This document shows, one piece after another, positions 22,656 through 40,851 of a stretch of DNA of 64,000 nucleotides (its first letter is position 1; the number at the start of each line of letters is the position of its first letter). Made by a program: the position numbers and the translations under genes. The notes under the pieces are model-generated. The model worked only from the letters and a program-made list of their open reading frames with translations, was not told the DNA's origin and did no database searches. Origin of the DNA: Candidatus Multivoradales bacterium (GTDB taxonomy: Bacteria > Acidobacteriota > Thermoanaerobaculia > Multivoradales > JAHEKO01); the NCBI GenBank assembly GCA_965223155.1, contig CBDCVR010000014.1, positions 320,001 to 384,000 on the forward strand. Reading direction: 5' to 3'.

Positions 22656-22981
22656 CGAAGGCGTCGAGCTCGCGCTTGGTGAGGTCCTGGCTCTCTCGGG
22701 GCATCCGTGGCTCCTTCCAGGGAAGACGGCCGACACGGAGGTCGGCCGCTACGTCAGGAGTCATTCCTCCTTCGGTGTGAAAAGACGGTCGAGACGGAGC
22801 TCGACCGCTACATCAGGAGGGCTCCTCCATCGGCCACCACAGATGAGTCTAGCCGAAAGTGGTAACCATAGTGGTAACCAAAAACTAGCGAGTTAAGCCG
22901 TTTTCTCCGAAACTTGTAGTAGTTACTTCGGGTCCTAACCGCGTACACCATGTCTCGACAAGTCACTCTAATACAGTGACT

Positions 22982-23090
22982 TGGTGTCCCCAACGGGATT
23001 TGCTACGAAGCGGAGCGATGCAATCGCTTCGCTGACCTCCGAATCCCGGAGGGGGCAACCCTGCCGAAGGCAGTGGTGTCCCCAACGGGA
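22982..23090. repeat. 109-bp direct repeat copy 2, overlapping the tRNA-Glu 3' end
   Basis: Identical to 18688-18796. Confidence 0.92.
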
Positions 23091-23151
23091 TTTGAACCCG
23101 TGTTGCCAGCTTGAAAGGCTGGAGTCCTAGGCCAGGCTAGACGATGGGGAC
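23074..23151 (-). tRNA. tRNA-Glu (TTC)
   Basis: GTCCCCATCGTCTAGCCTGGCCTAGGACTCCAGCCTTTCAAGCTGGCAACACGGGTTCAAATCCCGTTGGGGACACCA: 7-bp acceptor stem, CCAGC/GCTGG anticodon stem around CT-TTC-AA, GGTTCAA T-loop, encoded CCA. Confidence 0.97.
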
Positions 23152-23179
23152 AGGTAGGCGCCGCGGCGCGACGGCGGGG

Positions 23180-23188
23180 ATGATAGCA
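23180..23188 (-). promoter_or_regulatory. extended -10 promoter of tRNA-Glu
   Basis: TGCTATCAT followed by a GC-rich discriminator, about 30 nt upstream of the tRNA. Confidence 0.55.
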
Positions 23189-23285
23189 GAGTCTTGGGGC
23201 GATCTTCGCGGTCCGTCACGCTCCGCCGGACAAGGGCCGGGCCGGGGCCGGACGAGGGCCGGGCGAGAGCCCGGCAAGAGCTGGG

Positions 23286-24500
23286 TCAGGCGCGCTCGGC
23301 GCCGGCGTGGCGGTAGATCTCGGTGAGGATCCGGAGGTTTCGTCCGCCGGTGTAGAGGTCTTCGAAACGACGGCGTGCGGCGGCGCGGCGAGCCGCCAGG
23401 CCTTGGGGATCGGCGCTCAGGAGACGCACGGCAGCAGCCAGGGCGGTCGGGCTTTCGGGCTCGAAGCGCGCTCCAATCTCGTCGTCCACGAGTTCGGCGA
23501 GAGCCCCGGAATCGGAGGCCACGACCGGCGTGCCCTTGGCGAGGGCTTCGATGATGACTCGCGGGCAGTTCTCGTGGGCGATCGACGGCACGACCAGGCA
23601 GGCCGCCTCACCCATGAGGTCGAGCACCGGGGCCAGGTCGAGCGGCCCCAACACCTCGATGGCCGGATCGGCCTCCGCGGCCGAGCGCACCTCGTCCGCC
23701 AGCGGCCCGTCGCCAACGATCTTGAGGGGCATCCCGGGTGCTCCATCGCGCCAGGCCGCCAGGAGCACTTGCACGCCCTTCGCCGGCACCAACCGCCCGA
23801 CGAAGAGCGCATAGCCCCGGCCACCCGTCCTCGCGTCCGTCCCAGTCCTAGTCTCTGAATCCACACCGGGACCCGAACCGGGGCCGGGATCGGGCGCCAG
23901 GAAGTTGGGCTTGACCGCGATGCGCTCCGCCGGCCAGCCGCCTTCGACGAGCTTGTCCCTCGACGCCTCCGAGAGCGCGATGACGCGATCGACCCTGCGT
24001 CGTATCGTTCCGCGTAGATTATGAATCACCTGCATCGCCCCAACGACGGCACTCTGCACCAGGTTGCCGTGGTAGCAGCGATGCACCACGCTCTGCCAGG
24101 GCAGGGTCTTTCCCAGACAGAGCTCGCAAGGCAAGCCCTCGCGCACGAAGTTGGCATTGGCACACTGCCAGCGGAAGTTGTGGACCGACTGGACCACGGG
24201 CACGCCGCGAGCGCGGGCGACATCGTAGACCGAGGGCGAAAACAGCGGAAAGAGGTTGGTCGCGTGGAACACGTCGGGACGCTCCCGATCCAGCAACCGG
24301 CCCAGCCAGCGGGCGCTCTCCCGATTCCAGATCGAGCCCAGAGCCACGGCGGCGCGCGGTCGCTCCTCGACGTCCCGGTTGCTCATGGTGAAGCGGACGA
24401 CCTCGTGGCCGCCGGCCTCGAGCAGCGCGGCTTCGTCGCGAAAGACCCGGTCTTCCCCGCCAGGCGTGCGGTAGAAGTTGTGGCACAGAAGGATCTTCAT
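23286..24500 (-). CDS. glycosyltransferase family 4
   Basis: MKILLCHNFYRTPGGED, FVGRLVPAKG, ENCPRVIIEALAKGTPVV. Confidence 0.93.
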   Translation of the reverse strand: MKILLCHNFYRTPGGEDRVFRDEAALLEAGGHEVVRFTMSNRDVEERPRAAVALGSIWNRESARWLGRLLDRERPDVFHATNLFPLFSPSVYDVARARGVPVVQSVHNFRWQCANANFVREGLPCELCLGKTLPWQSVVHRCYHGNLVQSAVVGAMQVIHNLRGTIRRRVDRVIALSEASRDKLVEGGWPAERIAVKPNFLAPDPGPGSGPGVDSETRTGTDARTGGRGYALFVGRLVPAKGVQVLLAAWRDGAPGMPLKIVGDGPLADEVRSAAEADPAIEVLGPLDLAPVLDLMGEAACLVVPSIAHENCPRVIIEALAKGTPVVASDSGALAELVDDEIGARFEPESPTALAAAVRLLSADPQGLAARRAAARRRFEDLYTGGRNLRILTEIYRHAGAERA

Positions 24501-26353
24501 CCGGCCGGTGGCTGGACGGGCCTCTTCCGCGTCTCGCTCCCTTGTGGACCGGCCTGAGCCTCCACCAGCTGACGGTAGGGCCCATGAACCGCCATCAAAC
24601 GCTCGTGGCTCCCCTGCTCAACGACCCGCCCGGCCTCGAGGACGACCAGGTTGTCGGCGTCGCGCACTGTGGCGAGGCGGTGGGCGACGATCAGAACCGT
24701 TCGGGAGCCCCGCATCTCAGCCAGGGCTTCCTGGATCTTGCGCTCGCTTTCGGAATCCAGGTCACTCGTGGCCTCGTCCAGGATCAAGACCTCCGGATCG
24801 CGCAGGATCGCGCGGGCGATCGCAAGGCGCTGGCGCTGCCCCGCCGAGAGCAGCGAGCCGCGCTCGCCAACCACGGTGGCGAGACCTTCCGGCAGCCGGT
24901 CCAGGAACTCGAGTGCGTGGGCCCGGCGGCAGGCCTCGCGCACCTCGTCGAGGTTGGCGTCGGGGCGCCCCAGCCGGATGTTCTCGAGCGCGGTCTCATG
25001 GAACAGGAAGGTGTCCTGAGGCACCATCGCGACCCGCTCGAGCCACTGGGTCCGGTCGATTGCAGCGAGATTCACCCCATCGACCAAGATCCGCCCAGTG
25101 TCGCATGCCAACAGACCCGCCAGCAGGTTGGCGACGGTCGACTTGCCCGAGCCCGACGGACCGACGAGGCCGGTGGTTGTGCCCCGCTCCAGGGCGAACC
25201 CAACCTCGTGAAGTGCCGCCTCGTCGCGCCCACGATAGCGATACGAGACAGCCTCGAAGGTGACCTCCCGCTCCAGGCCGGCGAACGGCACCGCCTCCTC
25301 GCGAACCGGCGGCGGCTCGGCATCGCCCTCCAGGATCTCGAGCAACGAGCCGGCGCTGGGCACGAGCGTCGCCAGCCGTCCCCGCAGATCGGCCACGACC
25401 AAGGCCGGCGTCAGCAGGCGCAGCGCCACGGCCAGAAAGAGCCCCATGAACCCGAGAGAGGCTTCCAGCCGATCCGACAGAACCCAGGTGCTGCCGATCA
25501 TCAGAAGACACAACACAAAGGCGTTGACCGAGACGAAGAGCGGCCGGTTCAGATGAGCCAGGACGCCCTGTCGCCGCGCCGAACGCTCGCGCTCGGACGT
25601 CAACCCGGCGAAGCGCGAGCGAAACCGGTCCTCGAGCTGATAGAGGCGTACCAGGGGCAAGGCCGCCACGGTCTCGAGGCCGAAAGCGTTGAGCCGGGAC
25701 TCGGCCCGGTTAACCCGCCGGCCAGAGGCAACCTGACGCTGCTTGAAGGCCCCACGCACAGCTACCGACGACAATCCGAGGAGACCCACCGCGATCAAGG
25801 TCATCTTCCAGGACACCACCAGCAGCACCGTGAGGTAGACCAGAATCGTGGCCACGTCGACGACGGCCATCGCGGTCATACGGACAACAAGGCCGGCGTC
25901 GGTCGAGTACTTGTTGAGGGCGGTCAAGAGGTGTCCGGCGGGCTCGCCCGCGTGGGCGGTCAGATCGCGCGCCAGAAGGGCGCCGTAGAGCCGTTCACGC
26001 AGCCCGCGCACGACCCCTTCTTCCAGCCACACGGCCGAGATCCGGCTGGCGGCGTAGAGAACGCCGCGGACGATCAGGATCGCCATCAGGATCGCGCCGC
26101 CCATTCGTACCCGACCGGCAAGGGAGCTTCGGCCGGCAAGCTCTAGAAGCTCGGAGACGCCTGGCATCCGGGCAAGCCAGCTCGAGCCTCCCTGGGCCGA
26201 GTCGACGAGCGAGACCACCAGACCGACCCCCAGTCCTTCGGTCAGCGACGCGGCCAGCGAGGTTACGATCACCGCGACCAGCAGGGCGCTTCGTCCGGCG
26301 GTCAGGGTTCGAAGCCAGGATGCCAGACCGACGCTCTTGGTTGCCTCCTCCAT
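24497..26353 (-). CDS. ABC exporter, fused TMD-NBD (MsbA/PglK/HepA-like)
   Basis: N-terminal TM helices, GPSGSGKS, LSAGQRQR, ILDEATS. Confidence 0.93.
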   Translation of the reverse strand: MEEATKSVGLASWLRTLTAGRSALLVAVIVTSLAASLTEGLGVGLVVSLVDSAQGGSSWLARMPGVSELLELAGRSSLAGRVRMGGAILMAILIVRGVLYAASRISAVWLEEGVVRGLRERLYGALLARDLTAHAGEPAGHLLTALNKYSTDAGLVVRMTAMAVVDVATILVYLTVLLVVSWKMTLIAVGLLGLSSVAVRGAFKQRQVASGRRVNRAESRLNAFGLETVAALPLVRLYQLEDRFRSRFAGLTSERERSARRQGVLAHLNRPLFVSVNAFVLCLLMIGSTWVLSDRLEASLGFMGLFLAVALRLLTPALVVADLRGRLATLVPSAGSLLEILEGDAEPPPVREEAVPFAGLEREVTFEAVSYRYRGRDEAALHEVGFALERGTTTGLVGPSGSGKSTVANLLAGLLACDTGRILVDGVNLAAIDRTQWLERVAMVPQDTFLFHETALENIRLGRPDANLDEVREACRRAHALEFLDRLPEGLATVVGERGSLLSAGQRQRLAIARAILRDPEVLILDEATSDLDSESERKIQEALAEMRGSRTVLIVAHRLATVRDADNLVVLEAGRVVEQGSHERLMAVHGPYRQLVEAQAGPQGSETRKRPVQPPAG

Positions 26354-26393
26354 GGATCCCCGCGCACGCTACCAGAGCGCGTTCGAGCCTCGA

Positions 26394-27950: not shown

Positions 27951-28801
27951 GGATTCCTCGGACCGAGAACGCTCTCCACCGCCCAACCCGCGGCCCAGCA
28001 GGTGGCACGCAAGAACCGGATCCGGCTCGCCCGCGAAACCGGCGCCCCCAGCAGGCCGCGTAGCGCGCGTCCGCTCAGCCTCGCGGCGCGCCTTGGCATC
28101 CCGGCCTCGGCTACGAACCGGCCGTGCCGCCGGTAGAGGCGTCTTCGAGCCCGACCGTAACCGAACTGTTGCCGGGCGATCCCGGACCCCGTCTGCCGGT
28201 GCCGGTAGTGAACCGCCGCACCTGGCGCGTACCGGACTCGGAATCCCTTGCGGGCCGCCCGAATCGCAAGATCGACGTCCTCGCCTGGACTCATGCCATG
28301 GTGCCACCCGCCCAACTCGTCGAAAACTGCCCGACGAACGGCGAAGTTGCCGCCGCTTACGAACTCGAACGTACCCAGGTACCGGGGCAGCGCGTCCTCC
28401 GGCCAAGGAACGTCCCAACGGCACCAGGACGGATTGAGCTCTTGATCGGAAAGGTAGCCGCCGACGAGATCGGCGGTCTCCAAGGCGCGGACCAACGCCT
28501 TGAGCCATCCCGCCGTGACCCGGTCGTCGGCATCACAGCCCGCGAGCAGAACACCACGAGCTCGAGCAACTCCCAGATTCCTTGCCGCCGCCACCGACCG
28601 GGGTGCGTTCGAGCCGTCCACAAACCGAACCGGAGGCAGCCGGGCCCGCCAGCGCTCGACCCGGGCCATCGAATCGTCGGTCGAGCCGTTGTCAACGACC
28701 ACCAGTTCCCAGCCGCCGCTGTAGGTCTGGGCGGCCAGGGCTTGGAGCTGCGTCTCAATCGTCGCCGCCGCGTCGAGCACTGGCAAGATCACCGAAACCA
28801 T
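27947..28801 (-). CDS. glycosyltransferase family 2
   Basis: VSVILPV, VVDNGSTD, CDADD, GEDVDL. Confidence 0.9.
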   Translation of the reverse strand: MVSVILPVLDAAATIETQLQALAAQTYSGGWELVVVDNGSTDDSMARVERWRARLPPVRFVDGSNAPRSVAAARNLGVARARGVLLAGCDADDRVTAGWLKALVRALETADLVGGYLSDQELNPSWCRWDVPWPEDALPRYLGTFEFVSGGNFAVRRAVFDELGGWHHGMSPGEDVDLAIRAARKGFRVRYAPGAAVHYRHRQTGSGIARQQFGYGRARRRLYRRHGRFVAEAGMPRRAARLSGRALRGLLGAPVSRASRIRFLRATCWAAGWAVESVLGPRNP

Positions 28802-28861
28802 CTGGTCCGAGGCACGGCGGTCCGCCGTCCCCGTACGGTCTCCTCCAGGTATCATCACGCC

Positions 28862-30415
28862 TTGTCGCGCCGCGTTCTCGTTTACCTTCTCGACGCCCTC
28901 GAGCCCGACCTGCTCGAGCGCTGGTCGGACGAAGGCTACCTGCCCCAGATCGCACGACTTCGGCGCTCGGCTCGCGAGTTCCGGGTCCAGAACCGGGTCG
29001 ATTTCCTTCCGGATTCTATCTTTGGAGAGCTTCTGACCGGACGCTCGGTGGTTCGTACGGGAGACCTCACCGTCCTCGAGCACCTGCACAGCGGCGAGGC
29101 CACGGCTCGGGAGCCGACCTTTGCCGAGTTGCACGCCCGGCCCTATTTCTGGCGCGCAGCCTGCCGCCAGGGGCACCGGGCGCTGCTCGTCGACTTGCCT
29201 GGCGGCACGATCGACCGGGAGATCGAGGGCTTTCAACTCCAGGAATACGGAATGCACTACGCGCGGTCGAGTCCGGCAACGGTACCGCCCGGCCGGTTGA
29301 ACGCGATTCTTGACGAGTACGGTCCCTATCCAGTCGTCAACGGCGATCTCTACCCACCCAGGCTTGGCGATCTCACCCGGCTGCGAGACGATCTGCTCCG
29401 CGGTGTCGAGATCAAGGAACGACTCTTTCGCTCGTTCCTCGAGACGGAGGACTGGGACCTCGCCATCCTCACCGCCTCCGAGGCACACGTCGCCGGACAC
29501 CGCTTCTGGCATCTCTGGGAAGACGGCCACCCGCTCCAGCCGCCGGGCGTTGGGGACCGGCACAAGAGCTACCTGCGAGAGATCTACCAGGCCATCGATC
29601 GGAGTTTGGAGACAGCCCTCGACCGCGCCGGCGACGACACCGAGGTGCTCGTCTTGGCGACTCACGGCTTTCAGCGCTTTGGCGGTGCCCAGGAGATGAT
29701 GGCCGAGTTCTGCGAGCGGCTCGGCCTCGGCAGCGGCCGGACGCTTCGGCTCAAGCTCTCGGTGCTCGCGCCCCGGAGCCTGAAGCGGGCCATACGCCAT
29801 GTCCTTCCGCAAGACACGATGGACCGGTTCGGACTCGGGCACCACGCCCGGATGCGGGGCTTCGCCGGAGCGGAGGTCCAGGCGATCGCGATCCCGAATC
29901 AGAGAATCGGAGCCTTCCGTCTGAACCTCGGCGGGCGCGAGCCGGAAGGCCGCGTCCAGCCCGGTGCCGAGGCCGAAGGCATCCTGACAAGAATCGAAGA
30001 TGAGGTCCGCCAGCTGCGAGACGTGCGCACCGGCTTGCCGGTCGTCCAGAGCGTAACCAGGGCGAGCGAGGCGTTCGGAAGCGACTATCACCCGAACCTG
30101 CCGGACCTGCTCGTGGACTTTCGGCACGACATCGGACCCATCGACTCCATCGAATCGAAAACCGTTGGCCGTCTCCATCGGCCCAAAGTGCATTTTCGAA
30201 CCGGCGACCACACGTCGAACTCGAGACTCTGGATGCTACGAACCGGGGCGAACGATCCGGCAAGCGCTTCCGCCGCGGCCGGCGCCGGCGCCAACTTGGT
30301 CGAGGACATCGACATCCTCGACATCGCTCCGACCGTCCTCAGCCGGCTGGGCGTCGAGCTGCCCGACGGTCTCGACGGCCGGCCGATCGAGCCGGCCCCA
30401 GTGCCCGGCCGCTAA
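28862..30415 (+). CDS. alkaline phosphatase superfamily (type I phosphodiesterase/nucleotide pyrophosphatase-like) protein
   Basis: RVLVYLLDA, HVAGHRFWH, THGF (family usually DHGF), PDLLV, GDH, DIAPTVL; start position approximate. Confidence 0.8.
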   Translation: MSRRVLVYLLDALEPDLLERWSDEGYLPQIARLRRSAREFRVQNRVDFLPDSIFGELLTGRSVVRTGDLTVLEHLHSGEATAREPTFAELHARPYFWRAACRQGHRALLVDLPGGTIDREIEGFQLQEYGMHYARSSPATVPPGRLNAILDEYGPYPVVNGDLYPPRLGDLTRLRDDLLRGVEIKERLFRSFLETEDWDLAILTASEAHVAGHRFWHLWEDGHPLQPPGVGDRHKSYLREIYQAIDRSLETALDRAGDDTEVLVLATHGFQRFGGAQEMMAEFCERLGLGSGRTLRLKLSVLAPRSLKRAIRHVLPQDTMDRFGLGHHARMRGFAGAEVQAIAIPNQRIGAFRLNLGGREPEGRVQPGAEAEGILTRIEDEVRQLRDVRTGLPVVQSVTRASEAFGSDYHPNLPDLLVDFRHDIGPIDSIESKTVGRLHRPKVHFRTGDHTSNSRLWMLRTGANDPASASAAAGAGANLVEDIDILDIAPTVLSRLGVELPDGLDGRPIEPAPVPGR

Positions 30416-32817
30416 CGCACCGACCGGGCATCTCGGCTCTCGTCTCCGCCGAGCGCCGAGCGCACGTGCTCGAAGAACTTCCGGACGCTCAGAACAGCCA
30501 GTCCGACGAAGCTCTCGGCGTCGAAGTAGCGGCGCAGATAGGCGGGGAACCGAATGGCGTTGACAACGCCGGATCGGTCTCGATGCCGCCTCAGATAGCG
30601 CCACAGGATCGTTAGAAGCCGTAGCCGGCTGCGCCGCTCGTGAAACTCGACTCGTTCGAACAACGACGCCCGCCGGCGGCCAGGAAGCGCCTCGGCCGGC
30701 AAGCTGACCTCGAGAGCCTCCTTCAGGAACGTCAGCGTCTCGTCCAACACCAGGCTGAGCCGCGCTTCGGACCCGAGCTTCGCCAGCCGCTGCCAATCGA
30801 TAGCGTGGCTCCGAACCAGGAGCGCGGCGTCGAGCGGCCAGCGGAAGCTCGGCGCCTCGATGTCGGCGACGCCGTGAATCAGCGTTTGGAATAGATGATC
30901 GGTAGCGCACAGCGTGCGCGTCTCGATAACCCCGAACGCCAGCGGCACCGAGCCGTCCCAAAACCAGCGATCCGATGCCGAGCCTTGGTGATCCACCAGC
31001 AGATTCCAGTGCAAGTCGAGCTCGAGCCCCTCTCGGAAGCGAAGAATGGTCGAATGCTTGACCTCCACGTCCCGGTTCAGCGTCTCGGTCGTCTGCCAGC
31101 CGCCGGCCTCGAGCGCGGCCACCGCACGGCAGCGGTCGGGCCAACGCACCAGGAGATCGACATCGGCCATCGGCCGGCAGGCGGGCTCCGGATACGCCAG
31201 CCGGGCCAGGGCGCCACCCTTGTGCACCAGCGCGTCGAGCCCCGCACCACCCAGGCAGTCGAGCGCTTCGGTCAGGTGGCGCTCGTGGATCCGAGCCTGC
31301 ATCCAGCTTCTTCGGTAGGCCGCCTTGGCCGGCTCCGCAAGCAGCCCGCCTGAGCTCGTTTCGAGCCCGACCCCGATGTCCTCGAGCTGCCGGTAGAGGA
31401 ACGGTAGGAGCTGGACTGAGCGCCCATCCAAGGCAATCCCGTCGAGCGCCCGCAGTCGCTCGGCAAGCTCCCCAGCACTCTCGGCCAGGCATGCTCGCAA
31501 GAGCCGCTGGTGGCGCTTGTCGGGCAGGTGCCGCGCCCACGCACAGGCGGCGCCGACGGGCCGGGCGGAAGGATTGGGTGCAACGGCTCCGACCGGCGCT
31601 CCAGGCGCGCCCGGAGCAATCGACCGTGGCCTCTGACCCCGTGCGGCCAACCACCGGCCCAAGCGCCGCCTCCACTGAGACCAGGCGCGACCCCACGATC
31701 CGAAGCCGGCGGGTTCTAGGCCACCCGGCGAACCGCCGGCCGCATCGATCTCGGAATCACCCCCGTACGCCTCCTCGAGAAACTGCCGGCTCGGGAAGCC
31801 GATCCACCACGCCCGCCGCGTGCCCGCAAGCCAGCCCGGAGCCGACCCGAGAAGGCCGGCGATTCCCGGCGGCTCGCTCACCCGCACCTCGCGCCACAGC
31901 TGCTCGAAGTCCCGGCGGGACGTCCGCGCGGCCGTATCCGAGGCGGCCAAAACCGCTTCGGGAACCCCCAGTTCCAACGAGCCTCCTAGGAACCGGAGCA
32001 CCGGGCTCCAGCGCATCGACACGGCGCTCGCTTCTTGAAGCTCCCGCAACCGGTTCCAGGCGAAGTCACTCCGGCGACCCAGAAACACCAGATCGGGCAC
32101 CCACAGCAACGAGTGTCGCGCGGCTCCCAGCGCCGCGGCAAGGAGGCGCTCAAAGAAGGCGTCCGCAGGTGCCGGCGTCAACGCCTCGACGCCTCCCCAG
32201 GCCCCACGAACCGCCGATACCAGCATCGCTTCGAAGGCGGCGGCATCGTTTGCAACCGAGCTCGGCATGACGCTGGGCGAGCTGGCGAGAACGACCGAAA
32301 AGCCCGAGGAATGCTCGAAGGACACCGGCCCACGGCCGCCCTGCCGGCGCCGCGGTTCGAAATCCTGAACGGCAAGGACGGCAGCGGCGGCACCGAGCTC
32401 GGCCTCCCGCACGATCAGCCGGGGCCTGGGGGAATGGCGGGCGCCCGGGTGAGGCCAGGCGGCCTCGGCCAGAAGCGGACCGTCCGACCAGATCACCTCG
32501 AGCCCGGCGGCCGCGAGCCCTCCGGCCAGGCGCCGGCAAAAACCAAGCGATGTACGGTGACGCAGCTCCTCGCGCACCAGGGCGGTCCGGACGACCGTCC
32601 GTAGCATTGGGTCGGCGGCGAAGCCCACATCTTCGAGACGCAAGGCAATCAGCGGCAGCAGGGCTCGATGCCGGTCGGTCGCCTCGACCCGAACCAGGGC
32701 CAGGGGATCCCGAACCCGCTCCCGCCAGGCGCTCCATGAATCCCTGGCCGCATCGCCCTCGAGCAGGAGCGCACGCAGCAGATGCTTCGAAGGACTTTCG
32801 GGCAGCAAGCTCCCCAC
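30412..32817 (-). CDS. tandem nucleotidyltransferase (two NTP_transf_5-like domains)
   Basis: C-terminal domain has HKGGALA...YPEPACRPMADVDLLV and ELDLHW; the N-terminal domain has the same layout with degenerate motifs. Confidence 0.8.
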   Translation of the reverse strand: MGSLLPESPSKHLLRALLLEGDAARDSWSAWRERVRDPLALVRVEATDRHRALLPLIALRLEDVGFAADPMLRTVVRTALVREELRHRTSLGFCRRLAGGLAAAGLEVIWSDGPLLAEAAWPHPGARHSPRPRLIVREAELGAAAAVLAVQDFEPRRRQGGRGPVSFEHSSGFSVVLASSPSVMPSSVANDAAAFEAMLVSAVRGAWGGVEALTPAPADAFFERLLAAALGAARHSLLWVPDLVFLGRRSDFAWNRLRELQEASAVSMRWSPVLRFLGGSLELGVPEAVLAASDTAARTSRRDFEQLWREVRVSEPPGIAGLLGSAPGWLAGTRRAWWIGFPSRQFLEEAYGGDSEIDAAGGSPGGLEPAGFGSWGRAWSQWRRRLGRWLAARGQRPRSIAPGAPGAPVGAVAPNPSARPVGAACAWARHLPDKRHQRLLRACLAESAGELAERLRALDGIALDGRSVQLLPFLYRQLEDIGVGLETSSGGLLAEPAKAAYRRSWMQARIHERHLTEALDCLGGAGLDALVHKGGALARLAYPEPACRPMADVDLLVRWPDRCRAVAALEAGGWQTTETLNRDVEVKHSTILRFREGLELDLHWNLLVDHQGSASDRWFWDGSVPLAFGVIETRTLCATDHLFQTLIHGVADIEAPSFRWPLDAALLVRSHAIDWQRLAKLGSEARLSLVLDETLTFLKEALEVSLPAEALPGRRRASLFERVEFHERRSRLRLLTILWRYLRRHRDRSGVVNAIRFPAYLRRYFDAESFVGLAVLSVRKFFEHVRSALGGDESRDARSVR

Positions 32818-32831
32818 CCTCCGCTCCCGAC

Positions 32832-33515
32832 TCAGCCGCTCCGCGAGCCGCGCTTCGCATCGAGCCGGATCTTGATCAAGTCGAAGAGGCTCCGCGCGGG
32901 CAGCTCGGTGCGGCTGTGGTTGCCAGGGTGAAAGCGCCGGCGCATCAAGACATCTTCTAGGAACTCGATCTTGACGCCCTCGGCCGCGGCCCGGGCGAAC
33001 CAGCCGGTGTCGCTGCCGGCGGCGGCGAACCCGCCCACCCGATCGAACACCTCCCGGCGCGCCAGCAGAGTGGGCACCACGTAGCCGGCCATGGGCTCGG
33101 CCAGCGGGTGACCCCGGTAGCGCGCTTCCTCGGTGGCCAGCTCGGGCTCCCAGAAGTTGACGAAGCGGGTCACGCAAAGGTCGAGCACGGGATCGGCTGC
33201 AAAGACCTCGAGCTGTCGCTCCAGTTTGCCCGGCAGCCAGAGATCGTCGGCATCGAGATATGCGATGAAGGACCCGCGAGCGGCCGCCAGGGCCGCGTCA
33301 CGAGCTCGCGTGTAGCCCTGGTGGAGCGTCCGGACCAAACGGACGCGATCGCCGTAGCGCTCGGCGACGGCGGCGGTGCCGTCGGTCGAACCGTCGTCCA
33401 CGACCACGATTTCGGCCGCCGGCGCGGTCTGCGCCAGGACACTGTCGATGGCGGCTCCTAGGTACCGCTCGACGTTGTAGGCGGGGATAAGACAACTGAT
33501 TCCGTCTGCCATCAC
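32832..33515 (-). CDS. glycosyltransferase family 2
   Basis: ISCLIPAYN, VVDDGSTD, YLDADDLW. Confidence 0.93.
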   Translation of the reverse strand: MMADGISCLIPAYNVERYLGAAIDSVLAQTAPAAEIVVVDDGSTDGTAAVAERYGDRVRLVRTLHQGYTRARDAALAAARGSFIAYLDADDLWLPGKLERQLEVFAADPVLDLCVTRFVNFWEPELATEEARYRGHPLAEPMAGYVVPTLLARREVFDRVGGFAAAGSDTGWFARAAAEGVKIEFLEDVLMRRRFHPGNHSRTELPARSLFDLIKIRLDAKRGSRSG

Positions 33516-34225
33516 GACTCCGGCCCGCCGGTCGCCTCCTTCCGGCGACGATCCAGCCGCGCCTTGAGCAGGGTCAGGTACTCATCGAGGCTCTCCCCGC
33601 GCTGGCTTTGGCTTATGTTCTCGCCGTGGAGACGCCTGTGCACCAGAACCTCCTCGATCTCTGCTCCCCGCGCACCGGCATCGCGCGCCCGCAGGAACCA
33701 GGAGGTCTTGGCGGCGTGGCGCAGCTCAGGCTCGAACAGGCCAACCCGGTCGAAGGCCCGCCGCCGCGCAAGCAACGTCTGGACCCCATAGCCTCTCTGC
33801 GGCGCGAGCAGCTTCGCATCCAGCAGACAGTCGGCGGTTGCGCGGTCGGGCGAGATGAAGTTGCGAAGTCCTGTAACACAGTAGTCGAGATCCGGGTCGG
33901 CGGCGAAGCACTCCAACTGCCGCTCCAGCTTCGGCTCGAACCAGAGATCGTCGGCGTCCAGGAATCCCAGGAAGTCGCCGCTGGAAGCCTCGATTCCGCG
34001 GTTCAACGCGGCCGGATGTCCCCGGTTCTCTTGGCGCACCACGGTTACGGGACCGGCATCGCGGTAGCCCTCCGCCACCGCCGCCGAACCGTCGGTCGAG
34101 CCGTCATCAACGACGATCACCTCGTGCGGCGACACGGTCTGCGCCAGCGCGCTCTCGATCGTTTCGCCGAGGTACACTTCGCCGTTCCACACCGGGATGA
34201 TCACGCTGACACGGAAATCGGTCAT
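33512..34225 (-). CDS. glycosyltransferase family 2
   Basis: VSVIIPVWN, VVDDGSTD, FLDADDLW; paralogue of the adjacent GT2. Confidence 0.93.
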   Translation of the reverse strand: MTDFRVSVIIPVWNGEVYLGETIESALAQTVSPHEVIVVDDGSTDGSAAVAEGYRDAGPVTVVRQENRGHPAALNRGIEASSGDFLGFLDADDLWFEPKLERQLECFAADPDLDYCVTGLRNFISPDRATADCLLDAKLLAPQRGYGVQTLLARRRAFDRVGLFEPELRHAAKTSWFLRARDAGARGAEIEEVLVHRRLHGENISQSQRGESLDEYLTLLKARLDRRRKEATGGPES

Positions 34226-34294
34226 GACGCTGCAACTCAGCCGAGCATCCTACCGAAGCCGACCGGGCAGCCCTCGGATCTTGCAGCCCCCGCC

Positions 34295-35413
34295 ATGCGA
34301 ATCCTGATCTGGACCGGCGCGTTTCCGCCCAGCCGTGGCGGTGTCGAGGCGATCACCTCGGGCCTGGCGGCGAGCCTCATCGAACTCGGCGACGAAATCG
34401 CGATCGTGACCGACGGCTCCGGCTCCCCCCCGGACTCCGGAGATCCCGGGGCGAGCCCCGCCTACCCGGTCCATCGTTTGCCATTCCACGAAGCGCTCTC
34501 GGTGCGGGATCCGGGCCGAATTCAGGATCTCACGCGCCGGGTGCGGGCGATCAAGGCGCGATTCAGGCCCGACCTCGTCCACGTCCACGCCATCCATCCA
34601 TCGCTTTTCTGGCACCAGCGGACGCGGACGGACGGACGCCCAACCCTGCTGACGATGCACGGGCTGGGACGAGTCGAGTTTCGGCCCGGGACTTTGGCCC
34701 GCCGGACGCTCCAGAGTTCGAACTGGGTGACCGGTTGCAGCCGCCGGGTGCTCGAACGGCTGCGTGAGATCGAGCCGGCAATCGCGGACCGCAGCTCGTG
34801 CGTCTACAACGGCTGCCGCCTACCCGCGGCGAAGCCCGAACCGCCATCCTTCGATCGGCCCCTCCTTCTCGCCATCGGACGTCTGGTCCCGAGCAAGGGA
34901 CACCGGCTCGCCATCGAGGCCTTCGAGCTCCTCGCCCGCCGGCATCCCGCGGCCCGTTTGGCGATCGTCGGCGGCGGCCCGCTAGAGGCCGCGCTCGAGT
35001 CCCGCGTCTCCGAATCGCCCGCGGCCGAGCGCATCCGATTCGTCGGCCCGGTGCCGCCGGACGCGGCCGCGGCCTGGCTCGCACGCGCTGCGGTCGTGCT
35101 CCTGCCGTCGCGCCGTCCGGAAGGGCTGCCGCTTCTTTCCATCGAGGCCGCCCTGGCCGCTCGCCCGGTGGTGGCCTCCGCCGTTGACGGGCTGACCGAG
35201 GCCGTCGTCGACGGAGAAACCGGTATCCTCGTCCCCGCGCGCGATGCTGGGGCCTTGGCCGCCGGAGTCGAGCGTTTGCTGGCGGATCCCGACGGAGCAC
35301 GCGGCCTAGGCGAAGCCGCAAGAAGGCGCGCCTTGAAGCTTTTCGACTGGGACCTCCAAGTCGAACGCTACCGCGACCTGTACCGAAGACTCTCCAGGAG
35401 ACCTCTTTCATGA
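34295..35413 (+). CDS. glycosyltransferase family 4
   Basis: MRILIWTGAFPPSRGGVE, IGRLVPSKG, EGLPLLSIEA. Confidence 0.92.
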   Translation: MRILIWTGAFPPSRGGVEAITSGLAASLIELGDEIAIVTDGSGSPPDSGDPGASPAYPVHRLPFHEALSVRDPGRIQDLTRRVRAIKARFRPDLVHVHAIHPSLFWHQRTRTDGRPTLLTMHGLGRVEFRPGTLARRTLQSSNWVTGCSRRVLERLREIEPAIADRSSCVYNGCRLPAAKPEPPSFDRPLLLAIGRLVPSKGHRLAIEAFELLARRHPAARLAIVGGGPLEAALESRVSESPAAERIRFVGPVPPDAAAAWLARAAVVLLPSRRPEGLPLLSIEAALAARPVVASAVDGLTEAVVDGETGILVPARDAGALAAGVERLLADPDGARGLGEAARRRALKLFDWDLQVERYRDLYRRLSRRPLS

Positions 35414-35850
35414 ACCAGACCGAACGACGCCTTTGCCCGAACGAGCCGCCCATCGCCTCCAAGGTCCTGGACGGCGAGGCCATCTTGATCAACCTCGACA
35501 CTGGGGCGTACTACAGCCTCACCGGCTCGGGCGCGGTCGTCTGGGAGGCCGTGACCGGCCACCGGACCCGAACCGAAATCCACGACCATGTCGCCGCCGC
35601 CTACGACCGGGAAGTCGAGGCCATCGCAGCCGACGTTGATGCCTTCCTGGACCGACTCGAGGGCGAAGAGCTCATCCGCCACTCGCCCGAGAACGCCCCC
35701 GTGGCTGCCGGAACGGAGCCAAGCGACGCCGGTGAGTACCGGGCGCCCGAGCTCGAGAAGTTCACCGACATGGAAGAGCTCCTCGCCCTCGATCCCCCCA
35801 CGCCGGGCGCTCTCGACAACTTGATGCGACAGCCGCTTGGCGACGACTAA
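35410..35850 (+). CDS. PqqD/RRE family protein with C-terminal leader-like extension
   Basis: LDGEAILINLDTGAYYSLTGSGAVVWE...DVDAFLDRLEGEELI (RRE pattern), then YRAPELEKFTDMEELLALDPP. Confidence 0.88.
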   Translation: MNQTERRLCPNEPPIASKVLDGEAILINLDTGAYYSLTGSGAVVWEAVTGHRTRTEIHDHVAAAYDREVEAIAADVDAFLDRLEGEELIRHSPENAPVAAGTEPSDAGEYRAPELEKFTDMEELLALDPPTPGALDNLMRQPLGDD

Positions 35851-36880
35851 TCGAACCGATCCGGTCGCGGCGAGCTTCGAGGAAGCTGCGCGCCGGTTCG
35901 CGCTTGCCACCGAGGCGGAGCCGCCGACCGCCGCCGACTACGACCTCGCCGGACAGCACGTGGCGGTGCGGACGGTGGGCCACGAGCTGGGACGGGAGCT
36001 CGCCCAACCGCTCGGCCACCTGACCGCCCACCGCACAAAGACACCCGCGCTCGAGATCGACCTCTGGCTCGGCTCGGAAACCGGAATCGGCTGGCCGGAG
36101 CTCGCCGACGAGCTCGACCCCGCCGACCGGTTCCCGCTTCGCACCTCGGCCGACGATCGTTTCGTCGTGCACCGCCAGATCGAGACGGCCGTCTGGCTGG
36201 ACCGCCAGGAAGGCCGCATGGTGGGCGCCGTTCGCGATCTTGCGGGTAGATCTCTCTATGAGCGTGGCCGGCCCCTGGAAACGCCGCTCACGGTCTGGAT
36301 GCGCGACCAGAACGTTCAGGTCGCCCACGCCGCTTGCGTCGCCCTCGAAGGCCGCGGAGCCCTCCTCCTGGGAGCGAGCGGCTCCGGCAAATCGACCCTG
36401 GCCGCCCGCTGCCTGGCGGCGGGGTTCGAGTTTCTGAGCGACGACAAGGTCGCTCTCACCGGCGATGCCGCGACCGGATTCACCGGGCACAGCCTCAACA
36501 ACTCCCTCCATCTCTCGGCCGATTCGATCGACCTGGTGCCCGAGCTGGCGGCCAGCGCCGTAGCCCCAGCCACGAAGCTGGACGACAAGTTTCGGGTCCC
36601 TCTCGCGGAGAGCCGGTGGGCACGCCGGCTCCGCGCCCACGCCGCCATCACCGTCCTGGTGCTGCCGCGGCTCGAGGCCGCGCCTGCAACTGGACGGGCA
36701 AGCCCGCGCGAGGCTCTGCTCGCCCTGTCGCTCAGTACCCTGCTCTCGCTTCCGGTTCGGCGAGCGACCAGCCTCGACCGGCTGGCCGAAGCCGTCCGAG
36801 CCCTGCCGGCGCTTCATCTCGACGCCCGGGACGACGCCGCGCCCGAGCGGCTGCGCGAGATTCTGCGCAGCGGAGTCTAG
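35837..36880 (+). CDS. HPr kinase-related P-loop kinase
   Basis: HAACV...LLLGASGSGKST...FLSDD; start overlaps the PqqD gene. Confidence 0.85.
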   Translation: MATTNRTDPVAASFEEAARRFALATEAEPPTAADYDLAGQHVAVRTVGHELGRELAQPLGHLTAHRTKTPALEIDLWLGSETGIGWPELADELDPADRFPLRTSADDRFVVHRQIETAVWLDRQEGRMVGAVRDLAGRSLYERGRPLETPLTVWMRDQNVQVAHAACVALEGRGALLLGASGSGKSTLAARCLAAGFEFLSDDKVALTGDAATGFTGHSLNNSLHLSADSIDLVPELAASAVAPATKLDDKFRVPLAESRWARRLRAHAAITVLVLPRLEAAPATGRASPREALLALSLSTLLSLPVRRATSLDRLAEAVRALPALHLDARDDAAPERLREILRSGV

Positions 36881-36908
36881 ACCCGAATCGCCCTCGATCG
36901 GACGGCGC

Positions 36909-38006
36909 TCAGGAGCCCGGCCCGCGTCCTAGGAGCCGGTTGCCGATCCGCCGGGCCGGGAAGGTCACCGCCGTCCACGGATAGCGCGCGGCGATCTTGA
37001 CCGCCGACCCCCACCACGGCCATCGCGAGAGGCCTTCGAGCCGGGCTGCGCGCAGGCCGCGGCGCACGAAAAAGTAGCGCCGATGCGGTCGGCGCCCGAG
37101 ATCCTCCACGAGTCCCGAGAACCAGGGCCTGCGAGGCGGCCGCCAGCCGGCCCATTCCGTCTCTTCCAGAAGACGAAAGAATTCCGGAGTGAAATCGTCC
37201 GGGCACTTGGGCATCCAGGGTTTCTCGACCCCGGCGAAATGGGCGACAGACGGCCTGGCAAGCGCCGCCTCGAACTCGTCGGCATCGAAGCAGGTCGAGC
37301 GGTGCGAGGGGATCTCCTGCACGTGGGTCATGCGATTCCAGACCAGAGGCAATGGCGTCCAGCGCCCGGCCAGTGCACAGTTGAGTCCCTGCTGGTCGGG
37401 CGACCAGAACTGCCGGCGGTAGCGAACCGCGAAGTCGATCGCCCGCCCGCAGACGTCCTCGGCGCGCCAGCGGTCTAGTGGAATCAACATGAGCCCCGAG
37501 TTGAAGACCGGCAGCGGCCGCGAAGCGTCGATCTCGGGAGGCACGAAGTGGTGGTGCAGATGATGCACCATCGTGTCCTGCACCGCCGCCACCAAACCGT
37601 CCGCAAAGTCCATCGACCACAGCGGCTCGAGGTCGGCCAGAACGATCATGTCCGCGTCCAGGAACAGGACCTTCGCCAGATCCCCTGGCAGCAAGCGATC
37701 CAGGACCAGGGGGACACAACTCGCCAGCGGAAACGAGTACTCGGCCAGGCCCAGGGCGGCCAGCCGCTCACGGTTCAGCCGATGCCAGACCACGGCAACG
37801 CCGTCGCCACGCCAGGAGCGCGTCAGCCGTTCCCGGGTCGCGGTCTCGAGTCCGGCGTCGATGGCATGAAACTCGAGCGGCCGCTTCGGGCCCCGATGCT
37901 CGATCACCGAAACGCCGAGCGCCGCCAGACCGATGGCGAAGCGCTCGTCGGCGCCCGCCACCACCACCATCGGCTCATTCGAGGAGCCGCTCGTCTCGCC
38001 GGTCAC
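36909..38006 (-). CDS. glycosyltransferase family 8
   Basis: KVLFLDADM, FNSGLMLI, DQQGLN, HFAGVEKPW. Confidence 0.9.
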   Translation of the reverse strand: MTGETSGSSNEPMVVVAGADERFAIGLAALGVSVIEHRGPKRPLEFHAIDAGLETATRERLTRSWRGDGVAVVWHRLNRERLAALGLAEYSFPLASCVPLVLDRLLPGDLAKVLFLDADMIVLADLEPLWSMDFADGLVAAVQDTMVHHLHHHFVPPEIDASRPLPVFNSGLMLIPLDRWRAEDVCGRAIDFAVRYRRQFWSPDQQGLNCALAGRWTPLPLVWNRMTHVQEIPSHRSTCFDADEFEAALARPSVAHFAGVEKPWMPKCPDDFTPEFFRLLEETEWAGWRPPRRPWFSGLVEDLGRRPHRRYFFVRRGLRAARLEGLSRWPWWGSAVKIAARYPWTAVTFPARRIGNRLLGRGPGS

Positions 38007-38941
38007 GTCTCGAGCCAGTGCCCGAGGTCGCGGCCGGTGATCGCCTCGACCCGGCGAACGTCGTCCGCGAACCGATCGTTGAGCCGGCGCCGGGTCTCCG
38101 GGCGCATCGTAGGCGGCTTGACCCAATTGAGCCGTCGGTTGACTGCCATCGCCGCCTCCCAGAGACGGCGCGACGACCCTCCGGGCAGCAACCTCTTGAG
38201 CGCCGAGCGCGTCGGACTGGGAGTGGTCAGCCAGTTCTCGGCCGCGGGCAGCCGGGTGATGCGGGCCCGATTGTGGCGCTCGCCCACGTCCACTTCGAAA
38301 TCGTCCCGAACCCCGAGGAATCGAAAGAGCTCGACCAGAAACGACGCCGGATCTCGCGCGAGGTCTTCGAAGAAGAGAACCTTGAGGCGTGCGGGCTCGA
38401 ACAGGCGCAGATACCGCTCGAGCTGCTTCGCGTACAGCCCCTTCTGAACGTAGTGATACTGCTGACCCCAGTTCTCGGCAATCCGCCGCGGCTCGGCCGT
38501 CAAAGCCTCTTCGAAGCTCAAGGTCTCCTTGCCGCCTCTCAAGTTCATCAGATAGGCCGAGTAGGCGCGATCCGCCGGCTGGCGCAAGATCGCCACCAGC
38601 AGAGCCTCGCTGGCGTATCGCGCGATCTTCTCGGCCGCCCATTCGTCGTACAGGTACAACGTCGTCGCTTCACCGGCGACCTTCTCGTCGGTGCGTCCGG
38701 CGAAAAGCGCTCGGTACTGCTCGAAAGTGCGGATACCGTCCGGGCGCCTCGTGGCTTCCAGCGGTCCCCCCCATCGCTCCCGTCCATCCACGAGGGCGAA
38801 AAACGCCGGCTCCTTGCGGGGCGACATATACACCTCAGGGTGCTGGCGCAGGTAATGGTACACCGAGGTCGTGCCCGCTTTCATGGCACCCAGAATCAAG
38901 AAGTCGGGCATCGCCCCGGAGCCGCTCCGCACGGTGAGCAT
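38003..38941 (-). CDS. PAPS-dependent sulfotransferase
   Basis: PDFLILGAMKAGTTS (5'-PSB), LRQPADRAYSAY (3'-PB). Confidence 0.92.
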   Translation of the reverse strand: MLTVRSGSGAMPDFLILGAMKAGTTSVYHYLRQHPEVYMSPRKEPAFFALVDGRERWGGPLEATRRPDGIRTFEQYRALFAGRTDEKVAGEATTLYLYDEWAAEKIARYASEALLVAILRQPADRAYSAYLMNLRGGKETLSFEEALTAEPRRIAENWGQQYHYVQKGLYAKQLERYLRLFEPARLKVLFFEDLARDPASFLVELFRFLGVRDDFEVDVGERHNRARITRLPAAENWLTTPSPTRSALKRLLPGGSSRRLWEAAMAVNRRLNWVKPPTMRPETRRRLNDRFADDVRRVEAITGRDLGHWLET

Positions 38942-39005
38942 AATACTCCGCAGGCTCCGGCGCCTCGGCCCTTGCTATCCTGGCCTCGGGAGGACACCGC
39001 ATTCG

Positions 39006-39725
39006 ATGCGAAATCTAGGTCTGGTCGGTCTGGCTCTTCTTCTCGCTCTGTCTTCGTTCGCCCCGGCGGCCGAGGCGGCGCGGATCCCCGATTGCCTCGA
39101 CAATCCCGGCGTACCCGATCGGCTGGGTTTCACGCACCGAGTACCGATTCGCATTGGCGGCACATTCTGGTACTTCGCGGATCCGGGACTCCAGCTCTCC
39201 TCGACGCCGGACAACGTCGGCCAGCCGCAGGACATCCCCGGTCACTGCTGGTCGGTCTCGGCCCCGCTGGGCCGGTATCCACGCTTCTTCGGGCACCACT
39301 ACAACACCGGTCCGCTGGGAGCCGGGGCGCCCGGCCGGTTCTGGTCCAGCAATGCCCCGGATCACTCCCTGCTCTTTCTGGTCGACATCATCATCTCGCG
39401 CTGGACGCCCAAGCTCGCCCTCGAGCGCTTCAATGACGGCTACGTCCACTACCACGAGCTGGTGCGCGAGGGCGACGGCTGCGTCCATCCCCGACTCGTG
39501 GCCTGGTTCAAGCACACGGCCATCGAGAGCTTCTCGTTCGACGGCGGACCACCGCCGGTACTCCCGGACGGCACGTACTTCCGGCCGCGCAACGTCCCGT
39601 TCAAAGCCCGACCCGGTGTCGCCCACGGCTTCATGGTCAACTACGACGTGCCCTACAAGCCGCAGCAGCAGCGCATCGGCCGCGAAGCGTTTCCGGTCGA
39701 AGTCTGCAAGCTGAGCCGCAAGTAG
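39006..39725 (+). CDS. secreted hypothetical protein with His motifs
   Basis: Signal peptide MRNLGLVGLALLLALSSFAPAAEA; PGHCW, GHHYNTG, YVHYHEL, WFKHTA. Confidence 0.7.
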   Translation: MRNLGLVGLALLLALSSFAPAAEAARIPDCLDNPGVPDRLGFTHRVPIRIGGTFWYFADPGLQLSSTPDNVGQPQDIPGHCWSVSAPLGRYPRFFGHHYNTGPLGAGAPGRFWSSNAPDHSLLFLVDIIISRWTPKLALERFNDGYVHYHELVREGDGCVHPRLVAWFKHTAIESFSFDGGPPPVLPDGTYFRPRNVPFKARPGVAHGFMVNYDVPYKPQQQRIGREAFPVEVCKLSRK

Positions 39726-39837
39726 GCATCGTCGAATTCGGTGACAGATGAGATGAGTCGGTCGGTCTCCAGCTGGGACACTGTGCCAGTTGGAGATAAC
39801 CAAGAATCGGCATCAGAGCCGAGAAAGGAGACCGACC

Positions 39838-40851
39838 ATGGAGTATCTTGGCATCGATGTTCACTCGAAGTACAGCGAGGTGTGTGGCGTATCAGAAGAC
39901 GGTGAGGTGACGGTTCGCCGGCGGGTTCCGACGACCGAGACGGGCCTGCGAAGGTTCTTCGCCAATCGGGAACGCTCGCAGGTGACGCTCGAGAGCGGTC
40001 CGGTCACACCCTGGGTCTATCGACTGCTGTCTGAGCTCGGCCATGAGGTGATGGTGGTCAATCCACGCCGGGTACGTCTGATCGCGGAATCGACCCTGAA
40101 GACGGACGGAATCGACGCCGAGATCCTGGCTCGTTTGAGCCGGTTGGATCTGGGTTTGCTTCGACCAGTCTACCAGCGCACAGGTGAGGCCCAAGAGCTT
40201 CGGACGCGTCTTCGGGTCCGAACGAGTCTGGTGAAGACCAGGACCTCGCTGATCAACTCCGTACGCGGAACGCTGCGGGCACAGGGCTACCGAGTGCCCT
40301 CATGTCCGGCGAAGAGCTTCGTGGCTCGGTACGCGTCGATGTCGGTCGAAGCCGGCCTGTTGGGAGCGCTCGAACCTCTGGTAACGACAATCGGCGAGCT
40401 GACCGATCGGATCCACCATCTCGAAGACGACCTCATCTCCGAGTCGAGATCAAACGAGCTGGTCCGTCGGCTGCAGACGGTTCCTGGTGTGGGGCCTCTG
40501 GTGAGCCTTGCGTTCGTCGGCTGGATGGATCGTCCGGATCGGTTCGAGAAAAGCCGCGACGTCGGAGCGTGTCTGGGCTTGAGACCGTCGCTTCGCAGCT
40601 CAGGAGGGCATGAGGTCAGGGGCCGGATCACTCGCGAGGGCGACTCGGAGATGCGCAGACTCTTGGTGCAGGCAGCTCATGCGGCGTTGAACTGTCGCAA
40701 AGAGTCGTCACTCAAGAGATGGGCTGAGGGCCTGGTCGAGAGGCTGGGTAAGGGCAAGGCCGTGGTCGCGCTAGCTAGGAAGATCGCGGTGTTGCTCCAC
40801 AGGCTGTGGGTGACAGGTGAGAGCTTCCGAGCCTTTCCCAAGGCAGCGTAG
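39838..40851 (+). CDS. IS110 family recombinase/transposase
   Basis: YLGIDVH, LESG, KTDGIDA (RuvC-like DEDD), VPGVG, GLRPSLRSSGG, AVVALARK; AAAGGAG RBS. Confidence 0.95.
   Translation: MEYLGIDVHSKYSEVCGVSEDGEVTVRRRVPTTETGLRRFFANRERSQVTLESGPVTPWVYRLLSELGHEVMVVNPRRVRLIAESTLKTDGIDAEILARLSRLDLGLLRPVYQRTGEAQELRTRLRVRTSLVKTRTSLINSVRGTLRAQGYRVPSCPAKSFVARYASMSVEAGLLGALEPLVTTIGELTDRIHHLEDDLISESRSNELVRRLQTVPGVGPLVSLAFVGWMDRPDRFEKSRDVGACLGLRPSLRSSGGHEVRGRITREGDSEMRRLLVQAAHAALNCRKESSLKRWAEGLVERLGKGKAVVALARKIAVLLHRLWVTGESFRAFPKAA

Follow-up and report, generated by a model that had tools for sequence, protein, structure and literature searches.

A widespread RiPP recognition element family with a conserved leader-like tail that probably docks on its own domain

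What does a RiPP recognition element (RRE; RiPP, a peptide made on the ribosome and modified after translation) do in a gene cassette that encodes no precursor peptide? This question is raised by a 64,000-nt stretch of the genome of a Candidatus Multivoradales bacterium (GenBank assembly GCA_965223155.1, contig CBDCVR010000014.1, positions 320,001 to 384,000), hereafter the window. A cassette extending over ~23.3–38.9 kb of the window includes a gene for a 146-aa RRE protein with a C-terminal tail, alongside genes for an HprK-like kinase, a nucleotidyltransferase, and several glycosyltransferases (Table 1). A sequence-only reading had described this protein as an RRE followed by a leader-like YRAPEL motif (from position 35737) and an acidic, threonine-containing tail, a description that is borne out by the open reading frame (ORF), the Pfam match, and the translation. 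It had further proposed that the tail binds its own RRE in cis and presents substrate residues to the kinase. Here we report that the RRE-with-tail family is real and widespread in many bacterial phyla and that its leader-like strand probably docks in cis, and we weigh whether the loaded protein acts as an adaptor for partner enzymes or as their substrate.

The protein belongs by domain content to the PqqD-like RREs. Residues 23–89 match PF05402 (PqqD) at 59.7 bits, above the gathering cut-off of 23.4. The best NCBIfam models for the protein are two lasso B1 chaperone models, NF033536 and NF033530, both of which score below their curated cut-offs (44.4 vs 80 bits and 36.2 vs 70 bits, respectively). 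In a Foldseek search with the AlphaFold2 model, the best match in the PDB was TbiB1 bound to its leader peptide (5v1v_A, E = 3.7e-5, template modeling score of 0.87 on the target), and the top six PDB matches were leader-bound lasso B1 proteins (5v1v, 5v1u, 6jx3), in keeping with an RRE-like winged-helix fold. The residues expected to contact a leader are also present: Asp75 and Phe79 align with Asp70 and Phe74 of LppB (9x8z), i.e., the RRE of the linear polyphosphorylated peptide (LPP) clusters, and with the Asp-x-x-x-Phe of TbiB1. In LppB, the aspartate hydrogen-bonds the leader tyrosine and the phenylalanine contacts the leader between two pockets (Popov et al., Nat Commun 2026, PMC13381572). 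The tail is joined to the domain by a linker rich in Pro, Ala, Gly, Ser, and Glu (residues 90–109). It begins at Tyr110 (codon 35737–35739), and its 37 residues include nine Asp/Glu, three Lys/Arg, two Thr (T119 and T131), and no Ser. The stretch EYRAPELEKF is a near-match to the leader of the lasso precursor encoded by the same genome (EYSPPRLERF), in agreement with the earlier claim that the tail holds a lasso-type leader motif.

Sequence searches show that the tail is a regular part of these proteins. Among proteins of similar length, 402 relatives were found at E ≤ 1e-3, the best 120 of which are 132–167 aa long with query coverage of 79–100%. An exhaustive search of 50%-identity representatives yielded 4485 matches at E ≤ 1e-3 and 1117 clusters at E ≤ 1e-10; among the best 150 representatives, the match reaches query residue 129 or further in all but two, and these two exceptions (P0123 and P0241) nevertheless end with the motif. 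We counted conservation over 246 single-domain relatives of 125–185 aa. An aromatic residue dominates position 110 (Tyr in 220/246, Phe in 21/246, Trp in 3/246), followed by P113 (243/246), L115 (212/246), Tyr or Phe at position 118 (239/246), D120 (238/246), M121 (237/246), and P130 (214/246), and both D128 and P129 are invariant (246/246 each). Positions 113 to 129 are gap-free throughout; linker columns vary in length and sequence and are gapped in up to 120 of the 246 relatives per column. Beyond the D-P pair the proteins continue for 7–45 aa (median 17), the column of window residue L143 holding Trp in 131/246. About one tenth of the sequences carry a second tail subtype, L-D-P-[IV]-H-[DE]...G-W-P. 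On these alignments the tail is conserved as strongly as the RRE domain among the relatives. The motif TDM..LL.LDP picked out by the sequence-only reading thus holds for D120, M121, D128, and P129, though not for T119, which is Thr in only 123/246. With conservation of this kind, neither a motif arisen by chance nor a tail that is simply acidic and unstructured is tenable, and both readings were rejected. The related loci span at least a dozen phylum-level groups, as named in database records. No stand-alone tail-like peptide emerged from a search with query residues 100–146 among proteins of 25–83 aa, a search of low sensitivity that required three shared 5-mers, and the ESM Atlas gave no usable match with the tail alone and only PqqD clusters with the whole protein.

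Structure prediction favors docking of the tail on the RRE. The AlphaFold2 monomer model, built from a 32-row alignment, has a mean predicted local distance difference test score (pLDDT) of 84, with values of 94–98 over the RRE domain (residues 23–89). Residues 111–120 are predicted at a pLDDT of 94, with a strand at 116–118, and lie between a linker at 72–82 and a short helix at 121–127 (~60) that leads into a C-terminal end at 46–55. We also folded the RRE (residues 1–100) and the tail (residues 101–146) as two separate chains. This split-chain fold gave an ipSAE (interaction prediction score from aligned errors) of 0.44, against 0.00 for the best of three controls, and its runs share at least 82% of contacts with a partner pLDDT of at least 52. 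Of 157 solved complexes, 116 reach the mark used, as do 2 of 215 mismatched pairs. With an ipSAE of 0.60 or under, the mark is reached by only 18 of the 157 solved complexes, yet by both passing mismatches; the verdict for the docking is weak support.

Covariation and multidomain relatives point in the same direction. We scored covariation as mutual information with average product correction over 325 sequences (effective number 268) and 10,011 column pairs, among which the pairs 33–119, 75–110, and 38–116 rank 14th, 16th, and 23rd, respectively. In the solved PbaB1 complex, E-9, V-8, and L-7 of the PbaA leader, the three residues after the motif leucine, pair antiparallel with N40, Y39, and Y38 of PbaB1 (PMC13381572). 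PbaB1 Y38–N40 align with window Y34–S36; this register would place E116, K117, and F118 on S36, Y35, and Y34, and T119 should then face A33, in agreement with the observed pair 33–119. Arg38 is paired with Glu116 in 36 of 38 cases and Asp75 with Tyr110 in 277 of 281, and sequences without Asp75 have Phe or Trp at position 110 in 24 of 44. The Asp75/Tyr110 association is present within both tail subtypes (type A counts 271/4/12/3, Fisher p = 0.003). Of 11 relatives with two or more RRE units, 10 (all except P0127) have a [YFW]xxPx[LIVMF] strand after the first RRE, and the D-M..L-D-P motif, where present in these proteins, is single and at the end. In the AlphaFold2 model of the two-unit protein P0121, a strand is predicted at each Y-motif (pLDDT 80–90). 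Judged from models, covariation, and homology, the tail strand probably docks in cis on the groove of its own RRE, as the sequence-only reading had supposed.

As to fused forms, the search among longer proteins recovered three two-RRE proteins and nothing else. The 50%-identity representative search added a natural fusion, P0196 (789 aa), in which three RRE units, the first bearing the tail motif in full, precede an HprK-like kinase domain at the C-terminus; it is the single RRE-kinase fusion found.

We propose that this arrangement loads the RRE in advance. The leader groove of a lasso-type RRE would be filled by the protein's own strand, Y110..F118, brought there by the ~20-residue flexible linker. 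The strand would bind much as lasso and LPP leaders do, with Tyr110 in the first pocket and hydrogen-bonded to Asp75, Pro113 against Phe79, and Leu115 in the second pocket, and residues 116–119 would extend the β-sheet antiparallel to residues 33–36. Docking would hold the D-M-x-x-L-L-A-L-D-P-P-x-P-G motif at a set distance from the domain, and the RRE-plus-leader unit would display it to the HprK-like kinase, the PF14907 nucleotidyltransferase, and the glycosyltransferases of families 4 and 2 (GT4 and GT2). The RRE protein would then be a built-in adaptor or activator, rather than the receptor for a separate precursor. The domain's identity, the conservation of the tail, and the surrounding genes are shown by the data above and below. 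That a self-loaded RRE presents its invariant C-terminal motif to partner enzymes in this way is, in our judgment, an even call; which enzyme the second motif binds, and what the cassette produces, we infer only. An RRE-leader unit as an enzyme partner has precedent, because LppB is insoluble without its leader (PMC13381572) and BsfB1 speeds up the kinase BsfK (PMC10368454).

Several points weigh against this account. The covariation and the Asp75/Tyr110 tests ignore phylogeny, and a single subclade contributes much of the Asp75/Tyr110 signal: the 'DP[IV]H' tail subtype supplies 21 of the 24 sequences in which Phe or Trp occupies position 110 and Asp75 is missing. Because RRE-leader complexes have already been solved, the split-chain pass may reflect likeness to these rather than binding by the window copy. 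The docking pose itself is an inferred one, and the data would be fitted equally by trans docking, with the tail of one molecule on the RRE of another. An adaptor without a known substrate is an incomplete mechanism, and some Ser or Thr follows the motif in 296 of 320 tails, leaving room for a substrate role.

Table 1. Features of the RRE-with-tail gene and the surrounding cassette (positions in the window).
Feature	Position	Strand	Basis
RRE-with-tail gene, 146-aa product	35410..35850	+	ORF, ATG start; PqqD PF05402 match
PqqD/RRE winged-helix domain, residues 23–89	35476..35676	+	Pfam, AlphaFold2, Foldseek
Low-complexity linker, residues 90–109	35677..35736	+	Variable among relatives; AlphaFold2 pLDDT 72–82
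Leader-like strand Y110-R-A-P-E-L-E-K-F-T119	35737..35766	+	Conservation, AlphaFold2, covariation, lasso leader likeness
C-terminal motif D120-M-x-x-L-L-A-L-D128-P-P-x-P-G133	35767..35808	+	D128 and P129 invariant; once per protein
Variable acidic C-terminal end, residues 134–146	35809..35847	+	Variable length; pLDDT 46–55
HprK-like P-loop kinase	35837..36880	+	TIGR04352 43.3 bits (cut-off 200); Hpr_kinase_C 29.2 bits (cut-off 33.3)
GT4 glycosyltransferase, ATGA-coupled to RRE gene	34295..35413	+	Pfam Glycos_transf_1, Glyco_transf_4
921-aa ORF with two PF14907 (NTP_transf_5) stretches	30412..33177	-	PF14907 148.7 bits
Two small GT2 glycosyltransferases	32832-33515, 33512-34225	-	Glycos_transf_2 118.6 and 115.2 bits
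ABC exporter (ABC_membrane + ABC_tran)	24497..26353	-	Pfam
Sulfotransferase	38003..38941	-	Pfam Sulfotransfer_3, Sulfotransfer_1

In the window, the RRE gene is tightly packed between its neighbors. Its start codon lies in an ATGA overlap with the end of the upstream GT4 gene, and the kinase ORF overlaps its stop by 14 nt, provided that the TTG start assigned to the kinase is right. Besides the features in Table 1, the cassette codes for a further GT4, a GMC oxidoreductase, a GT2, a phosphodiesterase-family protein, and a GT8. A Pfam scan of the cassette ORFs revealed no lasso cyclase, B2 peptidase, or signal-peptidase-like gene, and no other peptidase family. There is no separate leader-bearing ORF either: among 157 small ORFs in 22200–39800, four contain [YW]xxPx[LVIFA]. 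One of these is the RRE protein's own tail, and the other three lie nested within other genes. The absence of a precursor gene noted from the sequence alone is thereby upheld for the cassette. We also considered a canonical lasso cluster with an overlooked cyclase and rejected it, since the window contains no cyclase or B2, the genome's Asn_synthase matches all lie outside the window, and its single Transglut_core3 gene is on contig C15.

A similar gene set accompanies the family elsewhere. A scan of one genome per species yielded 204 relatives, and 78 loci were kept. A homolog of the window kinase occurs in 68/78 loci and is directly adjacent on the same strand in 42/78, a PF14907 nucleotidyltransferase homolog occurs in 58/78, and an ABC (ATP-binding cassette) exporter homolog in 15/78; many of the loci without one of these homologs are short contigs. 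All full tail motifs of the 78 loci (79/79) sit in ORFs that also contain an RRE. Pfam annotation of 137 ORFs in 14 loci, together with the clean operon of L052, defines a recurring set of GT4, RRE-with-tail, kinase, two or three small GT2, and one or two PF14907 genes, often alongside sugar-modifying enzymes; the GT4 gene adjoins the RRE gene in several sampled loci. No peptidase, lasso cyclase, or B2 was present among the annotated ORFs of the 14 loci and L052, and the operons of six related loci (five low-GC loci and the high-GC L032) contain no conserved small ORF or leader-bearing ORF. Two separate adjacent nucleotidyltransferase genes are found in L007, L021, L052, and L002, compared with the single two-stretch ORF of the window.

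Seven loci with several kilobases of sequence beside the RRE-tail gene lack a kinase homolog. In four of these (L067, L057, L022, and L002), Pfam annotation places RRE-tail genes beside GT2 and GT4 genes, with radical S-adenosylmethionine (SAM) genes in two. Locus L067 (1848–10417 of a 'delta proteobacterium' contig) carries three RRE-with-tail paralogues within 9 kb, followed by radical SAM, GT2, and GT2 genes, and has no kinase or PF14907 gene within 18.5 kb of contig sequence. Since kinase-less loci exist, the kinase is a frequent partner rather than an obligatory one. Asn_synthase genes near L057 and L022 have strong GATase domains (E = 7e-41 and 3e-41, respectively), and we read them as probable ordinary AsnB-type enzymes.

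The gene content bears directly on the proposal that recognition element and substrate are one polypeptide, in which the cis-bound leader would present the tail as a core to the kinase and then to the nucleotidyltransferase and glycosyltransferases. Such a protein would fit the lack of a precursor gene in the cassette and in the six related loci, and the enzyme set parallels LPP and pseudomycoidin tailoring, in which the kinase phosphorylates Ser and the nucleotidyltransferase adds a hexose (PMC8498205, PMC13381572). The region after D-P is variable, like RiPP cores, and enzyme-substrate fusions are known from the borosins (PMC7878506). However, no hydroxyl in the tail is invariant. The T119 column holds Thr in 123/246 and Ser in 24/246 (147/246 together), position 131 is Thr or Ser in 50/246, and Phe replaces Y110 in 21/246. 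Ser and Thr are both absent downstream of the motif in 24 of 320 tails and downstream of D-P in 58 of 325. The window tail contains no Ser, while LppK, which phosphorylates Ser3 of LppA, did not phosphorylate the S3T and S3Y variants (PMC13381572). The kinase-less loci also count against a substrate role, as do the internal Y-strands of multi-RRE proteins, which have no 'core'. There is no leader peptidase in the cassette, and no signal peptidase I (SpI) of the archaeal type in the genome (TIGR02228, no match; assembly 98.7% complete), whose two Peptidase_S26 matches are both on contig C15. We therefore regard the one-polypeptide substrate as unlikely, and the earlier suggestion that the Thr and Asp residues after the motif are kinase substrates is not supported, for the same reasons.

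A variant of this idea centers on aspartate. The invariant acidic residue is D128, not just D120, and Asp128 always lies at +18 from Tyr110, the columns between them that matter being gap-free from position 113 on. This equals the spacing from Tyr(-16) to Ser3 in LppA, as counted from the published consensus, a match that supports the substrate proposal as far as it goes and may be a coincidence, a phospho-Ser mimic, or a true site. The cassette could be a self-contained pathway related to those of RiPPs, with the RRE protein as its own precursor or primer and the cis-bound leader putting Asp128-Pro129 at the position of the serine used by the LPP kinase; Asp128 might then be activated by the kinase or nucleotidyltransferase and built upon by the glycosyltransferases or, alternatively, might act as a phospho-Ser mimic. 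A proline after Asp128 would block the succinimide side reaction. We consider this reading of the cassette unlikely. If Asp128 did serve as a phospho-Ser mimic, RiPP-type tailoring enzymes would be permanently on, acting on a non-peptide glycan.

Returning to the docked strand, it could instead be a placeholder that merely caps or solubilizes the hydrophobic groove until a precursor encoded elsewhere displaces it. The insolubility of LppB alone and its need for a leader (PMC13381572) are compatible with such a role, and the genome does code for lasso precursors elsewhere, with a nearly identical leader motif. However, capping leaves unexplained the invariant D-M..L-D-P-P-x-P-G motif, whose conservation exceeds that of the strand supposed to do the capping; moreover, the genome's lasso cluster has its own tail-less B1, and inspection of six related loci turned up no possible precursor nearby. 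These observations make a placeholder quite unlikely. A scaffold in which the tail of one molecule docks in trans on the RRE of another, with dimers or chains organizing the glycosyltransferase machinery, draws weak support from the split-chain fold, which places the tail on a separate RRE chain, and from the existence of multi-RRE proteins, but is very unlikely given that the strands are already placed with confidence in AlphaFold2 models of single chains and that a linker of ~20 residues has the length needed to bind in cis.

The closest known system is that of the LPP clusters of Bacillota. These clusters (LppA/K/B/S/D/N) comprise the RRE LppB, an HprK-like kinase, a nucleoside triphosphate (NTP) transferase, an MsbA-like exporter, an SpI-like peptidase, and a separate precursor with a YxxPxV leader, and are described as lying inside polysaccharide loci (PMC13381572). 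Four gene types are shared with the window, i.e., discrete RRE, HprK-like kinase, NTP transferase, and MsbA-like exporter, the kinase match being below cut-off. The YxxPx[V/L] recognition motif is likewise shared, as is the tyrosine-bonding Asp, which aligns with Asp75 (PMC13381572). In contrast, the window has neither an SpI-like leader peptidase nor a separate precursor, and its leader motif lies inside the RRE protein. The position of the phospho-Ser3 (+18 from Tyr) is the invariant Asp128 in the window family (246/246), and the RRE-tail family extends over many phyla, unlike the LPP clusters.

Other systems resemble the window in part. Kinase-bearing lasso clusters (paeninodin, pseudomycoidin, and Bsf) likewise combine a B1-type RRE, an HprK-like Ser kinase, and a nucleotidyltransferase (PMC8498205, PMC10368454). 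The window differs from these in having no lasso cyclase or B2 peptidase, and the canonical B1 is a tail-less protein of 109 aa. The 'HPr-rel-A system' of NCBIfam (TIGR04352, kinase A; TIGR04353, PqqD-family chaperone) also pairs a PqqD-like protein with an HprK-related kinase, but the window kinase scores 43.3 against a cut-off of 200 and the window protein has no TIGR04353 match at E ≤ 0.01. The TIGR04353 model is 74 positions long, with the tail outside it, and is matched weakly by a second copy of the RRE-tail system in the same genome (L079, below). Leader-LctM and leader-LynD are engineered leader-fused RiPP enzymes, made as laboratory constructs. They too join a recognition or activating peptide to its protein partner, though unlike the window protein they are laboratory-made. 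In borosins, the core is fused to a catalytic domain rather than a leader to an RRE (PMC7878506). No published description of an RRE with a fused leader was found in the literature searched, and as far as we found the RRE-tail family is undescribed.

Such a family would have a bearing on earlier surveys. RRE-Finder reported ~8,000 proteins with a best match to its discrete lasso RRE model, of which ~4,000 co-occur with a lasso peptidase and cyclase, and suggested that the remaining proteins might be false positives or belong to RiPP classes not yet known (PMC7470986). A self-leadered RRE family that spans phyla would account for some of these orphans and would be a natural counterpart of the leader-fused enzymes made by chemists. 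In addition, a small soluble protein with a defined tail would offer a handle for finding the product of the conserved kinase, nucleotidyltransferase, and glycosyltransferase cassette.

The genome contains further loci related to the cassette. Contig C13 carries a canonical lasso cluster (L081, 4438–7881, minus strand) whose B1, at 109 aa, is tail-less and whose precursor has Y(-17), P(-14), L(-12), and T(-2). The cluster also encodes a cyclase and an HprK-like kinase, and no B2 peptidase is adjacent. On the same contig lies the second, minimal copy of the RRE-tail system (L079, 7613–10282, minus strand), which encodes a 148-aa RRE of the 'L-D-P-V-H-D..G-W-P' tail subtype with Phe in place of Tyr110 and Arg in place of Asp75, together with an HprK-like kinase, a PF14907 nucleotidyltransferase, and a divergent GT2.

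An IS110-family transposase gene (39790–40851, plus strand) lies just beyond the cassette and a gene for a RepA_C-like protein (19095–19955, plus strand) lies upstream, which hints that this part of the genome is mobile or variable. A 284-aa ORF at 38871–39725 on the plus strand separates the sulfotransferase from the transposase; its N-terminus resembles a signal peptide, and it matches no Pfam family. Finally, the 25-kb contig C7 opens (L080, 1–12000) with an identical copy of the last 63 codons of the tail gene and continues with ORFs equal in size to the IS110 transposase and the 670-aa ORF of the window, which suggests a duplicate from assembly or a strain variant of this region.

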